DNA of 64,000 nucleotides from Candidatus Omnitrophota bacterium (GCA_015232565.1 JADFZK010000004.1:11907-75906); one strand, 5' to 3'; counted from the first letter of the stretch, positions 1 to 47,289 are shown. Translations and numbers: made by a program. Notes: a model not told the origin generated them from the sequence alone.

Positions 1-1088
1 TCTCGTATTCGATCGGATCCTCAATAGTAATGATCTTGCGATTGGGGTCATTGATCTCGTGCAAACAGGCGTAAAGGGTAGTGGTCTTGCCGCTTCCCGT
101 CGGACCGGTCACAAAGATAATGCCGTGTGGACGGCAGATCAACTCGCGGAACTTGCGGGCATTGTCCTTGTTGAAGCCCAGCTTCTCCAGGTCCAGCAAG
201 GTGGTCGTGGTCGGCAAAAGCCGGATGACCATGCTTTCGCCATGTAACGTGGGAATAGTGGAAACCCGCAGATCCAGGGCCTGGTCCTTTACCCGCACGA
301 CGGCACTGCCATCATGGGGCTTACGCCTTTCGGTAATGCTGATATTAGCCATGATCTTGATCCGCGACAGAATAGCCGCCAGAAAATGGCGGGCTTCCAC
401 CGGCAAATTAGCATCGATCAACACCCCGTCAATACGATAACGAAAACGGACTTTATTGCGATAGGGTTCAATATGGATATCCGTAGCCCGTTTTTGAAAA
501 GCTTCCAGGATTATCTGATTGACCAGTTTGGTAACCGACGGGTCCTCGCTGGAACGCTCAATATCTTCCGGCGCGCCACTTTCCTCCTGAGCAAACTGGG
601 CGCGTTTCCGCGGCTCTTTGGTCAGGATCTGATCGATAGTCTCCGACGCCAACCCGTAGTACTTCTTTAAAGCTTCCTCGATGTCCCAGGGCCCGGCCAA
701 AACCTGCCGAGTGTCCAGGCCGAGATGAGCGCGAATATCGTCCTGACTGCGGATATCCAACGGTTCAAAGACCGCCACGGTAAGCTTATTGCCTTCCAGC
801 GCCACCGGCATGAACTGGTAATACGAAGCCACCTTAACGGGCACCCGCTCGATCACCGCCTTGTCGATCACCGCCGCTTTAAGATTGATCACTTCCAGCT
901 TGAGCAGGTCGGACAAGGCCTTCAATAGCTCAGGGGCCTTGAGAACCCCTTCCTGAACCAGATAAACGCCCAGCTTCTTGTTAAGCCGCTGAGCTTCACT
1001 GGCGTAGGCCAGAAGCGCAGATTCATCGAGCAGTTCGGATTTAAGGATAGAATCGATCAGAGATTTACTGACAGAGGGCTTAAGCATA
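1..1088 (-). CDS. Type II secretion / type IV pilus assembly ATPase, GspE/PilB/MshE family (5' part only; C-terminus lies beyond the window start)
   Basis: Reverse-complement translation from ATG at 1086-1088 gives MLKPSVSKSLIDS...; N-terminal T2SSE_N/MshEN-like helical domains are followed by the Walker A box FVTGPTGSGKTTTLYACL and IEDPIEYE, diagnostic of secretion NTPases. The start lies 18 nt downstream of the atpD stop. Confidence 0.8.
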
Positions 1089-1106
1089 CGATTTCACGAG
1101 GTCCGG

Positions 1107-2549
1107 CTATACTCTGGGAGCTTTACCGATCATATAGAAATCGGAAGACTCCAAATGATCATACTCACCATTAAGGATACGCTCACAACCCTCGATATTG
1201 TCTTCAATAGGGACGTACTCACCCTTTTTACCGGTGAAGACCTCGGATACGGAAAAAGGCTGGGTCATAAAATTGTAGAGTTTTTCAGCGCGCTTATAGA
1301 TCAACTGGTCCTCTTTGCTCAACTCATCGATACCAATAACCGCCACCACGCGCTTTAAAGCATTATGTTTATTAAAATGCTGAATAACCCGCTGGGATAC
1401 TTCATAGTGACGGCGGCCCACCACCGCGGTATCCAGGTTGGTACAGGAACTTTGCAAAGGATCAATGGCCGGATACATACCGCGCTGTACCAGGTCGCGC
1501 GAAAGCACGATATTGCCGTCCAAAGTGGCAAAAATCGCCACTACCGCCGGATCGGTCATGTCGTCTGCCGGCACATACACCGCCTGCATAGCGGTAATGG
1601 ATCCGCCGCCGTCCACCGAACGGATACGTTCCTGCACAGCATTAACCTCGGAAGACATAGTTGGCTGATAACCGGTTTCGGCCGGAACACGTCCCAGCAA
1701 GGTGGATATCTCCTGCCCGCCCTGGATAAAACGATACAAATTATCCATGAACAAAAGCACGTCCTTGTTCTTGGCCACCAGATATTCCGCCATGGTCAGC
1801 CCGGCGTTCACGACTTCGGCGCGCGTACCCGGCGGCTGGTCCATCTGGCCAAAAGCGAGCATAACTTTGTGCAACAAATTGCTTTCATGCAATTCATAAT
1901 AAAGCTCATTGCCCTCGCGGATGCGTTCTCCGATGCCGGTAAAAACGCACGCACCGCCATGGGCTTTAACGATATTATGGATCAGTTCCAGAATGATAAC
2001 CGTTTTACCGCAACCGGCGCCGCCTATAACCCCGGTACGGCTACCCTTAACCAGCGGATAAAGCAGATCCACATATTTAATCCCGGTCTCCAGAACCTCG
2101 GCGATCTCGCGCCGTTTACTGGTCAGGTCAAAGGTCACTTCCACAGTAGGCTTGCGGATCGGGATCAGGTTCGGGCAGTTTTCAAAAGGGCCGCCATTGT
2201 CCAGCGGTCGACCTGAAGTATCCATAACCCGGCCGAAACAACCATCACCCACCGGAATAGCAATGGGTTTGTACGTACAAAAACAAGGCGCGTTCTTTTG
2301 CAGGTTCAAAGTCTCCTGAAGGGAAATGCAACGGACCACTCCCTGGCCCAAATGCTCGGCACATTGCAGGGTGATCTTCTTGCCTTCAAAAGTCATGGTC
2401 TCAATACAGTCATAAACCGCCGGCGAAGACTCGCCCTCGAAGAATTTAATATCCACGACCGGACCTTGTACCGCCACTATACTCGCAGAAGGGCGACGGT
2501 CAACCGGTGCGCTGGCAGTCTTGGTTTTTTCCACAGCAGTTTCAGCCAT
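1107..2549 (-). CDS. atpD: F-type ATP synthase beta subunit
   Basis: 480 aa; collinear with bacterial beta subunits ([10 protein letters not shown]-loop variant, [13 protein letters not shown], DELSEEDxL-like [16 protein letters not shown] motifs). Confidence 0.9.
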
Positions 2550-45097: not shown

Positions 45098-46672
45098 TTA
45101 ATTATAAGACTTGGACGGCTTTATTGAACCGCTCGATTCCTTGTAATTCTCTTTACCAGTCATGATGTGAGGCGTAATAAATATCACTATCTCCGTAGAG
45201 GTAGTTTCGTCAGCCTGGTTGCTGAAAAGCTTTCCCAACAATGGCATTTCCCCTAGGATCGGTATGCCTGTCTTGGTGTGCTTTTTATCGTCCTTCCGTA
45301 AACCAGCCAAAACAATGGTGGTCCCGTCCTCAACAAGTACCGTGGTTTCGATCTCGGTCTTGTTAACTTGAGGAATACCGCCTTCATTCGCGCTATTGGT
45401 TGACTTCACGCTAAGTACGACAGATGAAATCTCCGGTTTCAATCGCAGGGTAACCATGCCGTCGTCATTAATTGTGGGTGTTACACTTAATTTCAAACCA
45501 ACATCCACAAAACGAACATCTTCACTGATTACAGGATTAGCCGTACCCACCGTAGTCGAAATTATATAGGGGACCGTGTCACCTATGTGAATACGAGCTT
45601 CCTCATTATTGATAGCCAAAATTTTCGGATTAGAAAGGATCTTGGTATCGCTGACCTCATTCATTGCCTTGATCTGAGCCAGAAAATTGCCGGCATTAAC
45701 CGTGCCAACCTGGACCTTGCCGAAAGTTCCGTCTAGATTTGCAGCCGCAGGAGAACCAAAGCCAACAGTCATGTCGTGAATAGATTTATTTTTCAACAGC
45801 AACGACCAATCGATGCCCATGTCGTACTGTGGTTTAAGAATAACTTGCAGGATCCGCGCTTCGATCAAAACTTCTTTGGTCGGCTCATCCAGATGGCGCA
45901 CGATCTTTTCGATCTCGTCCTTGCGGCCAGGGAAAACCCTGACCACCAGCTGATTGGAACGCTCGTCGGCCGTAATGGAACCTACCGACTTGGCATCGAT
46001 CCGCATACGCAGTTTATCCGCCACTACATCCGCTTTGGCATATTGCAGGCTATAAACCATGGTTTCCAAAGGCTGTTCGATCTCCAGTACTACTTTTTTC
46101 ATTTTGGCAATGGACTCCGGCGTGTCGATCAGTACCAATGAACCGGTATCCTCATCGATGACGATCTTACCGACATTGCTCTTGATGTTGTCCAGCGTGG
46201 CCAACACATAACTGGGTTTGGCATACTGCAAATGCAGGGTTTCAACCACCGTTTTGTCGCCGAACTGCTTGCCGAACATGGCTTCATACTCAACCGAGGT
46301 CATTACCTGAATTATGTCGTTCTGAATGGAATACGCCAAGCGGTTGGAGACCACCACGATATCCAGCGCGTCCTTGATGCCCACATTGTCCAACAGCACG
46401 GTGGTGCGTCCGTCAACGGCAGGGCTGACAATCACGTTGAAATCGCCCTTCATTGCCAAAAACTTGATAACGTCCACAATGTTCATGTCGCGCACATCGA
46501 GCGCGATCTTGCGGTTCATCCGCACTTCGATAGTTTCCCGTGGCTCAGTGAGGAGTATGGGCTTGGGAAGTTTGGGCTCTTCCGCCCGTAGAGGTGCGGC
46601 CGAAACCAAAAGCACGGCCGCGCCAAGGACAAACGGTAAAATCCTGAAGGAAAATGGCTTGAGTGTAGTCAT
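45098..46672 (-). CDS. Secretin, GspD/PilQ family
   Basis: 524 aa; signal peptide, N-domains, and a C-terminal secretin domain with hallmark ILSNPKILAINNEEARIHIGDTVPY ... GIPILGEMPLLGKLFSNQADETTSTEIVIFITPHI. Confidence 0.85.
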   Translation of the reverse strand: MTTLKPFSFRILPFVLGAAVLLVSAAPLRAEEPKLPKPILLTEPRETIEVRMNRKIALDVRDMNIVDVIKFLAMKGDFNVIVSPAVDGRTTVLLDNVGIKDALDIVVVSNRLAYSIQNDIIQVMTSVEYEAMFGKQFGDKTVVETLHLQYAKPSYVLATLDNIKSNVGKIVIDEDTGSLVLIDTPESIAKMKKVVLEIEQPLETMVYSLQYAKADVVADKLRMRIDAKSVGSITADERSNQLVVRVFPGRKDEIEKIVRHLDEPTKEVLIEARILQVILKPQYDMGIDWSLLLKNKSIHDMTVGFGSPAAANLDGTFGKVQVGTVNAGNFLAQIKAMNEVSDTKILSNPKILAINNEEARIHIGDTVPYIISTTVGTANPVISEDVRFVDVGLKLSVTPTINDDGMVTLRLKPEISSVVLSVKSTNSANEGGIPQVNKTEIETTVLVEDGTTIVLAGLRKDDKKHTKTGIPILGEMPLLGKLFSNQADETTSTEIVIFITPHIMTGKENYKESSGSIKPSKSYN

Positions 46673-47289
46673 AGCTTGATTGTTATCTCCTCGTTGGCGC
46701 GGCTGAAGACCACGCGATCCGTGTAGATGATCTTAACGATCACATCCTCAACCTTGTCTCCCTGTTTCAGGAAGTGGGTCATATGCGTAGCCGTATCTTC
46801 CAGCATTACAGTAGCGGACTCAGGCACATCCAGCCAGGCAATACCGACGATCTTGAACTTGGACATTTTCTTTTCCAAAGCCACCAGGTCGGAAGGCGCG
46901 GTCTCTTTTACCTCGACCTTTTTCTCGTAAGGCTGGAAAATATTGCGCGAACTGATCCTGTCCAGGTAATACCCGACACTTTTCATTTGCGGCACGAACA
47001 GATTTACATTCTCCCTGGCCGCACCATTGCCGGAGGAGAAAACCACTTCTTCGCCGATCAAGGTTAAGCCACTGCGCACTTCATAGGCGAAGAACAGTGC
47101 GCTGGCCACCACACATACAATTAAAAAAACATTGAACTGCCGGACATTGAACGCGAAACTACGACGGGGACTTGTTACCGCCGACTTCGCCAACATGGCC
47201 GGCGCTTCGCTCCTGGAGCCCGCCTGCGCCTTTTTGGAGGCTTCGATGATCTTCAGGAGTTTTTGTTCCGCGGTTTCTTTTTGTGCCAT
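46669..47289 (-). CDS. Bitopic membrane protein, possible secretin-associated PilP/GspC-like component
   Basis: 206 aa; single TM (VFLIVCVVASALFFAY) then beta-rich C-terminal domain; 4-nt overlap with the secretin start. Family assignment is positional only. Confidence 0.35.
   Translation of the reverse strand: MAQKETAEQKLLKIIEASKKAQAGSRSEAPAMLAKSAVTSPRRSFAFNVRQFNVFLIVCVVASALFFAYEVRSGLTLIGEEVVFSSGNGAARENVNLFVPQMKSVGYYLDRISSRNIFQPYEKKVEVKETAPSDLVALEKKMSKFKIVGIAWLDVPESATVMLEDTATHMTHFLKQGDKVEDVIVKIIYTDRVVFSRANEEITIKL

Follow-up and report, generated by a model that had tools for sequence, protein, structure and literature searches.

The locus and its genes

The subject of this analysis is a secretion-type locus of a Candidatus Omnitrophota bacterium, contained in a 64,000-nucleotide stretch of one contig (GCA_015232565.1, JADFZK010000004.1:11907-75906). 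This whole stretch is referred to as the window, and positions are counted from its first nucleotide. The locus is a member of an Omnitrophota-wide type of machine, resembling a type II secretion system (T2SS) or type IV pilus (T4P), whose genes are interrupted by those of an F-type ATPase, and here it also contains a giant gene for a 13-residue repeat protein. Open reading frame (ORF) calls over the 64-kb window found 15 minus-strand genes in the order and with the spacing described earlier, and all of the genes of more than 100 codons with family support are on the minus strand. The features of the locus are as follows.

2-1087, minus strand: GspE/PilB-type secretion ATPase, N-terminal 362 aa, truncated by the window start (Pfam T2SSE 8.8e-59, MshEN 2.6e-17)
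1107-2549, minus strand: F-type ATPase beta subunit (Pfam ATP-synt_ab 9.9e-70)
2573-3430, minus strand: F-type ATPase gamma subunit (Pfam ATP-synt 4.7e-29)
3443-4201, minus strand: b/delta fusion of the peripheral stalk (Pfam OSCP 7.3e-06, residues 164-235)
4267-4497, minus strand: c2, divergent second c-type subunit (HHalign match to the c1 family, 98%)
4501-4722, minus strand: c1, c subunit with the ion-binding Glu (Pfam ATP-synt_C 5e-07)
4738-5013, minus strand: epsilon subunit, 91 aa (Pfam ATP-synt_DE_N 5.6e-08)
5033-6520, minus strand: F-type ATPase alpha subunit (Pfam ATP-synt_ab and ATP-synt_ab_C)
6517-7848, minus strand: cc443, a 443-aa envelope protein (ORF, no family match)
7855-40743, minus strand: giant repeat protein, 10,962 aa from the TTG at 40743, with the ATG at 40731 as the probable start (ORF)
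8734-39231, minus strand: perfect array of 782 units of 13 residues, or 39 nt (repeat statistics)
21160-27000, strand not assigned: higher-order tandem array with a period of 1,092 nt (28 units), copies 78-98% identical
31130-35226, strand not assigned: exact in-frame duplication of 1,445 nt (31130-32574 = 33782-35226)
40531-40623, minus strand: N-terminus of the mature giant protein, bearing two aromatic-x-G-G motifs (sequence reading)
40744-40871, minus strand: AT-rich 128-nt leader of the giant gene, with two sigma-70-like matches
40872-42512, minus strand: FGE1, a secreted two-domain protein (Pfam FGE-sulfatase domain)
42545-44143, minus strand: FGE2, a paralogue 41% identical to FGE1 (Pfam FGE-sulfatase 5.2e-10)
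44234-45097, minus strand: secreted coiled-coil and TPR protein (Pfam TPR_11 6e-12)
45098-46672, minus strand: secretin of the GspD/PilQ type (Pfam Secretin 3.4e-48, Secretin_N 4.6e-20)
46669-47289, minus strand: GspC/PilP-like bitopic protein, 206 aa (weak NCBIfam GspC_delta match, 2.1e-06)

The genes form one tightly packed co-directional block. Spacing is -4 to 90 nt throughout, except for the 128 nt ahead of the giant gene (140 nt should translation begin at the ATG at 40731); where the ATPase, fibre and secretion genes adjoin, they overlap by 4 nt or are 6-19 nt apart. The original prediction of this order, direction and packing is thus borne out, apart from the start of the GspE gene, which had been placed at 1088 and is at 1087, so that the gap between the beta and GspE genes is 19 nt. 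The promoter-like sites in the leader (40846-40819 and 40793-40765) are not significant when compared with shuffled sequences. Promoter and terminator scans at the gene junctions likewise gave results no different from shuffles and are uninformative on operon structure. Rfam and tRNA scans of the window found nothing.

Conservation of the locus in the Omnitrophota

For the alpha subunit there are hundreds of relatives at 68-94% identity; nearly all those with a name are Candidatus Omnitrophota, and one is labelled Elusimicrobia. A genome scan using one genome per GTDB species gave 80 loci (L-numbered), for the most part labelled Omnitrophota, with alpha identities of 57-93%, in which ORFs were labelled by comparison with the window proteins. 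All 80 of these closest genomic relatives have the same locus type. The order repeat protein, cc443, alpha, epsilon, c1, (c2), b/delta, gamma, beta, GspE is present in every locus with enough flanking sequence (66/66), at alpha identities down to 57%. Individually, cc443 was found in 68 of the 69 loci with at least 1.5 kb upstream of atpA and the repeat protein in all 66 with at least 2.5 kb upstream. Where at least 6 kb is available downstream, GspE, beta, gamma, b/delta and c1 are all present (66/66), with epsilon in 64/66 and c2 in 59/66.

On the other side of the giant gene, the order GspC-like protein, secretin, TPR protein, FGE, FGE, repeat protein is found in all seven loci in which that side is visible (L024, L085, L086 and L097-L100). 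L086 retains the secretin and FGE module despite having different other neighbours. The co-occurrence of the secretin, FGE genes, giant gene and GspE in related genomes, which had been put forward as a check on the linkage, is therefore found (66/66, and 7/7 for the upstream set).

Of the 69 contigs cut on the repeat side, 58 end inside the repeat gene, and this gene is therefore poorly represented in the databases. Many of the locus contigs (L005-L084) are labelled 'uncultured Planctomycetales', Planctomycetia or 'uncultured bacterium', and one Elusimicrobia; the Planctomycetales, Planctomycetia and other labels are probably those of mislabelled Omnitrophota bins. Two contigs of one metagenome-assembled genome (MAG), L078 (JACPXL010000033.1) and L081 (JACPXL010000022.1), each have the repeat protein, cc443, the ATPase and GspE, and represent either two copies of the system or a mixed bin.

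The giant repeat protein

The giant ORF is open without a break for 10,962 codons from the TTG (32.9 kb), with its N- and C-terminal domains intact. It encodes, in order, a signal peptide, two Q/Y-x-G-G motifs, approximately 290 aa of non-repeat N-terminal domains, approximately 795 repeat units and a C-terminal domain of approximately 235 aa that ends in VVVKTWFESEE. The protein has a Sec signal and is without a transmembrane (TM) helix. Its mature N-terminus follows the AFA of the signal peptide and starts QFSGGPTNG, with NYTGGKDSG further on. Four complete repeat proteins are available, of 868 aa (L024), 1,324 aa (L051), 8,087 aa (L001) and 10,962 aa (window), and these have their N- and C-terminal domains in common, as well as a conserved VVVK[TA][WY][FY]ES tail.

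The 13-residue unit has the consensus [TS]G[IV]NW[TS]D[IL]x[TVS][LM][ST]x, in which the Asn-Trp pair never varies and more than 80% of units also carry the Asp and the Gly. There are 798 NW dipeptides, 792 of them spaced by exactly 13 residues, and the longest perfect consecutive run is 782 units. DNA identity from unit to unit is only about 55-58% and 725 of the 782 units are distinct, so that a simple artefact of low complexity or of collapsed repeats is not the explanation for the array. Synonymous codons are also mixed, with the Asn encoded by AAT in 486 units and by AAC in 296, which indicates that the units diverged long ago. Alongside this old divergence there have been recent in-frame events, namely the exact 1,445-nt duplication, with copies 68 units apart, and the 28-unit array; these indicate that length changes by segmental duplication. 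Due to the same exact duplicate and the 1,092-nt higher-order array, the exact number of units could be uncertain if the assembly was made from short reads.

Searching 1.84 billion representative proteins with a profile of the repeat gave 583 matches at E <= 0.001. The longest of the 150 best is 4,701 aa, and most of these 150 are short, presumably being fragments. No Pfam family matches the giant protein above cut-off; the sole sub-threshold match on the repeats, to Lysostaphin_N, is attributed to a common 13-residue periodicity. The repeat, the N-terminal domains and the C-terminal 235 residues are not covered by any Pfam, NCBIfam or PDB family, and PDB sequence searches with the fibre N-terminal domain and the repeat profile gave nothing meaningful. 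An AlphaFold2 (AF2) model of 20 repeat units, made from an alignment of 39 in-register paralogous segments, has one short helix per unit and is unreliable (pLDDT 50, pTM 0.22). At this pLDDT it was too poor for a fold search or a length estimate.

Only five NW spacings in the giant protein are irregular. One of these, at 39208-39246 on the minus strand and directly before the regular run, has a spacing of 6 residues from NW to NW (VNWPDRVNWDNL). An NWxxx[QR][IV]NW junction is present at the equivalent site in L024, L051, L085 and L086, with IDW for NW in L086, and it looks like a conserved structural break. In 59% of units N-W-[ST] forms an N-x-S/T sequon, and every unit contains a Trp; glycosylation of the fibre is possible. 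Upstream of the locus there is a GT2-DUF2304-GT2 block (47406-49452, minus strand), conserved also in L085 and L097-L100, which could make lipid-linked sugars. The plus strand opposite the giant gene (8336-39499) has many long ORFs of up to 487 aa, for example at 20738-22201, which follow the repeat period and are therefore by-products of repeat composition rather than genes.

Secretion genes and cc443

The secretin scores 255 bits against PilQ and 233 bits against GspD. Both are below the equivalog cut-offs, which leaves its subtype undecided. Full-length orthologues of the truncated GspE score 555-560 bits for GspE/PilB, just under both equivalog cut-offs. The 206-aa GspC-like protein has one TM helix and no Pfam match, and its GspC match is at 27.7 bits against a cut-off of 150. 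The TPR protein was originally described as pilotin-like, but has neither a lipoprotein signal nor a Cys lipobox, and its matches to PilW, Tgl and GltE are sub-threshold, so this description is not retained.

The GspF and pilin genes that had been expected beyond the window start were sought on the contigs of relatives, where they are present. Downstream of GspE these have GspF, usually a Peptidase_MA_2 protein, a GspG-type pseudopilin, two or three minor pseudopilins, GspK and a PilM/PilN fusion. The GspG match exceeds its cut-off (146.5 bits, cut-off 88.85), that to GspF does not (328 bits, cut-off 424), and GspK was recognised by T2SSK_1st. No prepilin peptidase was seen in the stretches of relatives examined. 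There are 11 genes between the secretin and GspE. As the secretin half and the GspE-K half lie on either side of the fibre and ATPase genes, the T2SS genes are split into an outer-membrane half and an inner-membrane half.

The cc443 protein has no Pfam, NCBIfam or PDB relative. By eye it consists of two similar modules, each followed by a coiled-coil-like stretch, and then a conserved C-terminal TM helix with a short basic tail. The membrane anchor that was predicted for this protein is therefore present; however, it had been called signal-anchored, and the conserved anchor is at the C-terminus, the N-terminal hydrophobic region being variable. The stop codon of cc443 overlaps the start of atpA (ATGA).

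Other features associated with the secretion genes vary between loci. In some relatives the GspE homologue is approximately 720 aa and ends in a PilZ domain (L003 13991-16162), in addition to the c-di-GMP-binding MshEN domain, and the window has a stand-alone PilZ gene at 61849-62343 (minus strand), 14.6 kb upstream of the locus. These are hints that the apparatus may be under c-di-GMP control. An ExeA/GspA-like AAA ATPase (AAA_22) is located directly upstream of the GspC-like gene in L085 (4408-5337), L098 (4256-5149) and L099 (4319-5221). It is absent from the window, where the distance from the GT2 gene to the GspC-like gene is 116 nt.

The F-type ATPase

The ATPase genes encode alpha, beta, gamma, epsilon, delta and b (as a b/delta fusion) and c, which are the canonical F1Fo parts except for the 'a' subunit. 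Beta scores 533 bits against NCBIfam atpD (cut-off 462.85) and alpha 506.5 bits against atpA (cut-off 484.45). The catalytic motifs are readable in the sequence, including DELSKED in beta. The b/delta protein has a TM helix at residues 2-20, a coiled coil and an OSCP-like C-terminal domain. In epsilon the beta-sandwich domain alone was matched by Pfam, and its length suggests that it is too short for the usual C-terminal helices. While c2 has no Pfam match, it aligns with the c1 family over its full length (HHalign 98%, 71 columns) with the Glu aligned, and is a two-helix hairpin with this Glu in helix 2. The Glu is retained in 76 of 79 orthologues of c1 and in 59 of 69 of c2.

No ORF for an 'a' subunit (atpB) was found in the 64-kb window, nor between the repeat gene and GspE in 66 loci, this being a search of the clusters rather than of whole genomes. 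A c-ring without an 'a' subunit cannot couple rotation to ion flow. The simplest reading of an 'a'-less cluster is therefore an ATP-driven rotor, and it is proposed on this basis that the complex would be an ATP-hydrolysing motor or energiser rather than the ATP synthase of the cell.

Two other families were considered for the alpha and beta subunits and rejected. Scores for the Mycoplasma F1-like (type 2/3) family, MMOB1660/1670 and MSC_0618/0619, were 379 (cut-off 600), 401 (850), 283 (520) and 384 (570), and for the N-ATPase (alt_F1F0 alpha and beta) they were 468 against 750.5 and 451 against 752 bits.

A 116-aa protein encoded at 49433-49783 (minus strand) starts with a TM helix and ends in an OSCP/delta-like domain (Pfam 3.4e-09), and is a second delta-like stalk piece apart from the ATPase cluster. 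Its gene, which lies 2 kb upstream of the secretion genes and is flanked by the S41 peptidase and GT2 genes, is in the same place in L097, L099 and L100. Further from the locus, a 1,088-aa ORF between gcvT and a polysaccharide deacetylase (56166-59432, minus strand) has no Pfam match at E <= 0.01.

The FGE-fold pair and its motif partner

The two FGE-sulfatase-domain proteins, of 532 and 546 aa, are built from an N-terminal beta-sandwich and an FGE/C-type-lectin-like fold. They have a type-I signal peptide that ends in VTA and is followed by NN, with A21 and N22 invariant. There is no lipobox, the sole N-terminal Cys is inside the signal peptide and is not conserved, and the mature part of the family has no invariant or near-invariant Cys column in an alignment of 38 sequences. 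The copper-binding Cys pair of catalytic FGEs, which it had been suggested should be looked for, is thus absent. Solved FGEs in the PDB match the pair over a 50-residue core motif only. The identification as catalytic FGEs was rejected on these grounds, and judging from their sequences the two proteins are very probably not such enzymes.

The likeness to GldJ and GldK that was originally claimed is also not sustained beyond the fold. FGE-fold proteins build the periplasmic gliding track of the Bacteroidota, and GldJ, GldK and PorK are defined by a lipid anchor and by an invariant Cys that is disulfide-linked to SprF/PorG (PMC12635249). The Omnitrophota pair have neither, and no GldJ or GldK match was obtained in an NCBIfam scan, in which FGE1 had a weak match to EgtB/SenA only and FGE2 had none. 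PorK is no nearer to the pair than are PvdO, EgtB or SUMF2. In contrast to the systems that move SprB, the locus also has no GldN/PorN gene and has T2SS-type export. That FGE1 and FGE2 might be the counterparts of SprC and SprD of the Flavobacterium sprCDBF operon was also considered.

FGE2 is 31-35% identical, over its full length, to FGE-like proteins of Flavobacteriales and other Bacteroidota-like origin, and one relative of the family is 100% identical to a Bacteroidales MAG protein (NCBI). Those encoded beside type IX secretion system (T9SS) substrates have 32-35% full two-domain identity to FGE1 and FGE2 and a partner with the same mature N-terminal motif as the Omnitrophota repeat proteins. 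In the latter, cleavage is followed by Q-[FY]-[ST]-G-G and then by a second Y-x-G-G in all eight N-termini available (8/8). Of 1,028 background ORFs, 12 have one such motif and 1 has two or more (residues 16-90 being scanned for at least two). The following stretches have FGE-like genes with motif partners.

L101 (Flavobacteriales MAG), 10001-12270: one FGE-like gene; the downstream protein with a T9SS tail starts QYTGGDGDGF
L102, 6001-8253: one FGE-like gene; the downstream protein with a T9SS tail starts QFLGGSGSGY
L103, 2481-11299: four FGE-like genes, then a secreted protein with four Q-[FY]-x-G-G-x-G-x-G motifs

The pairing of these genes in two phyla, and the motif counts, lead us to infer as a working hypothesis that each FGE-fold protein may dock on, or modify, one N-terminal motif. 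The FGE homologue of L101 adjoins a small T9SS protein and not an SprB-like gene. A metagenome scan with FGE1 also gave loci with 2-4 FGE-like genes, and in these, large Gly-rich repeat proteins follow that have many F-x-G-G-x-S-D-G-F-A motifs. The Bacteroidota loci differ from the one described here in the partner, which is either a small protein with a T9SS tail (L101, L102) or, in Bacteroidales, a Gly-rich giant with 45-residue repeats, and in having no linked secretin or ATPase. No described function was found for the Bacteroidota FGE-like family.

In the termite-gut loci (L087, L090, L092 and L093-L095) the second FGE-like protein of each set is 1,040-1,200 aa. That of L092, a Bacteroidales MAG (11701-14820), has an ALK/LTK glycine-rich domain after the FGE domain (Pfam 2.6e-21) and was the sole one scanned. 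CHU_C-associated Ig-like domains are present in the downstream giant proteins of L089 and L092.

Relation to described systems

The locus shares with the canonical T2SS a GspC-like protein, secretin and GspE and, in relatives, GspF, GspG, minor pseudopilins, GspK and the GspL-like PilM/N. It differs in having 11 genes inserted into the set, a TPR protein that is no lipoprotein pilotin and, as its presumed substrate, a fibre reaching 11,000 residues instead of a folded enzyme.

A close parallel for the ATPase is the gliding machinery of Mycoplasma mobile, in which F1-type alpha and beta paralogues act outside ATP synthesis and are genetically linked to the very large surface proteins Gli349 and Gli521. 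In the Omnitrophota locus, however, alpha and beta are above the atpA and atpD cut-offs and below those of MMOB and MSC, and there are c subunits, a b/delta stalk, two membranes and a secretin. Beven and colleagues are said to have reported in 2012 that the Mycoplasma type 2/3 F1-like clusters are without an Fo c subunit, whereas this locus has two c-type genes.

An association of ATPase and pilus genes in this phylum has been published. According to Seymour et al. 2023 (PMC10066038), many Omnitrophota, of every class, encode a non-respiratory F-type ATPase beside type 4a pilus (T4aP) genes, the two being within 10 kb in 57 of 66 contigs; alpha was placed near the Mycoplasma type 2/3 F1-like ATPases, and a role in attachment or motility on hosts was proposed. 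The loci described there and here have in common the phylum and an F-type ATPase cluster within 10 kb of GspE/PilB-type genes (19 nt in the window), and the role on host cells suggested there would apply here as well. In that paper, however, giant ORFs are treated as a separate trait and the label used is T4aP, whereas the relatives studied here have a major pilin that scores above the GspG (T2SS) cut-off.

West-Roberts et al. 2023 and a 2026 preprint, in the parts searched, describe T2SS, T4P and Tad genes beside Omnitrophota giant genes of another type, encoding proteins that are multi-TM, SecA-DEAD, dockerin or multi-enzyme. The window protein differs from these: it has a Sec signal, lacks TM helices and Pfam domains, and contains a single 13-residue repeat. 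In the same preprint the F1Fo set is called 'incomplete'. The searched passages of all three sources, PMC10066038 included, contain no 13-mer repeat protein, cc443, FGE pair, two c subunits or missing 'a'. The suggestion that this is not a described system accordingly stands for part of the locus and fails for the link between ATPase and pilus. The apparently undescribed parts are the 13-mer giant fibre encoded mid-locus, the cc443 protein, the FGE pair together with a motif partner that recurs across phyla, and the two c subunits without an 'a'.

A possible apparatus and the alternatives to it

Opinion is evenly balanced on whether the locus encodes a single apparatus that has the repeat protein for its fibre or its cargo. 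The giant protein would on this reading be the cargo or filament of the secretin, as its place in the gene order suggests. It would be made with its Sec signal peptide and enter the periplasm by the Sec route. The two aromatic-x-G-G motifs could then be recognised one-to-one by the two FGE-fold proteins, which would be binding modules rather than enzymes and might serve as chaperone, pilot or tip heads. The fibre, a rod of several hundred units that varies in length between species, would be pushed through the secretin by a GspE/F/G pseudopilus and displayed as a long adhesive tether for contact with host or prey, a step suggested by the order of the genes and by what is reported of how the phylum lives. 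Its C-terminal coiled-coil-like domain may be tethered to the inner membrane by way of cc443, whose gene is presumably coupled to atpA in translation. The ATPase of alpha, beta, gamma, epsilon, b/delta, c1 and c2, which lacks 'a', would be an ATP-hydrolysing motor, a function that follows the proposal of Seymour et al. 2023.

Much less weight is given to any specific motor mechanism than to the existence of one apparatus. The fullest version would be a new envelope-spanning machine, in which an 'a'-less rotary ATPase that has ceased to make ATP, acting through a c1/c2 ring and cc443, spends ATP to extend, rotate or reel in a secretin-threaded fibre of species-specific length, with two lectin-like FGE heads on the aromatic-x-G-G motifs at its distal N-terminus, the docking being shared with Bacteroidota T9SS cargo. 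This version is quite doubtful.

Several points weigh against a single apparatus of this kind. The functional links are drawn from gene order. Substrates of the T2SS normally fold in the periplasm, and a fibre of the predicted length could not. The pLDDT of the AF2 repeat model is 50. The FGE-fold proteins might be enzymes of another chemistry. The termite-gut Bacteroidales loci, with their 2-4 FGE genes and dozens of motifs, also break the one-to-one correspondence.

The remaining points on this side are those expected if the genes are merely neighbours: an ordinary T2SS or T4aP, the ATP synthase of the cell with 'a' encoded elsewhere, and an unrelated surface or coat protein, kept together by stable gene order in small and densely packed genomes. 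This is considered unlikely. Alpha and beta pass the canonical atpA and atpD cut-offs and c1 keeps its ion-binding Glu, therefore the complex could be an ordinary ATP synthase; the 2026 preprint reports alpha and beta in 125 of 176 complete genomes. In addition, gcvP, lipB, and the S41 peptidase and GT2 genes are also syntenic in L097-L100. Since housekeeping genes have kept their order in these closer relatives, synteny there is weak evidence, and the argument from linkage rests on the more distant loci, on L086, and on the fibre and ATPase genes lying inside the secretion gene set. It is at these points that simple neighbourhood fits less well. In 66/66 loci, at alpha identities as low as 57%, the ATPase and fibre genes come between the secretin module and GspE-K, as they do in all classes according to PMC10066038. 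The junctions have 4-nt overlaps and gaps of 6-19 nt, no cluster has an 'a' gene, and one MAG, unless its bin is mixed, has two complete copies of the arrangement (L078 and L081).

Alternatively, the repeat protein may not be secreted at all, and instead be a periplasmic or envelope belt, track or coat, with the FGE pair at its N-terminus and cc443 at its C-terminus, perhaps glycosylated by the GT2 proteins and moved by the ATPase in the manner of a GldJ/K track. The role of FGE-fold proteins in the Bacteroidota track (PMC12635249), the conserved non-repeat domains at both ends of the giant protein, and the sequons in 59% of units with a conserved GT2-DUF2304-GT2 block nearby would all be in keeping with this. 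However, the FGE pair lack the lipid anchor, the invariant Cys and any GldJ/K hidden Markov model match, and no GldN/PorN-like gene is in the locus. There is also a complete set of outer-membrane channel and pseudopilus genes, of which the usual role is export, and the motif partners in L101 and L102 carry T9SS tails and are therefore exported. A belt or track is improbable in this light.

That the length of the giant ORF is an assembly artefact of a shorter repeat gene is very improbable: the exact 1,445-nt duplicate, the near-identical 1,092-nt blocks and the 58 of 69 public contigs that end inside the orthologous gene are what such an artefact could produce, but 725 of 782 units are distinct, with about 55% pairwise DNA identity and mixed synonymous codons, the 32.9-kb frame is open with intact terminal domains, and an 8,087-aa orthologue is present on a 1.34-Mb contig (L001).

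Implications for the Omnitrophota

The Omnitrophota are widespread, mostly uncultured and ultra-small bacteria that are thought to live on other cells. The locus is present in many GTDB species-representative genomes of the phylum, has been reported from every class, and joins a secretin/pseudopilus exporter, a rotary ATPase and a giant fibre, which are normally separate. Most short-read assemblies break in the repeat gene, which is why public protein catalogues largely lack it. If the parts of the locus work together, the pairing of FGE-fold proteins with Q-[FY]-x-G-G motifs in two phyla suggests a general and undescribed docking or modification module. The locus would then be the second case, after Mycoplasma gliding, of an F-type ATPase used as a mechanical motor, and the first to retain a c-ring. 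It would also provide a concrete candidate for the host-contact organelle of the phylum.

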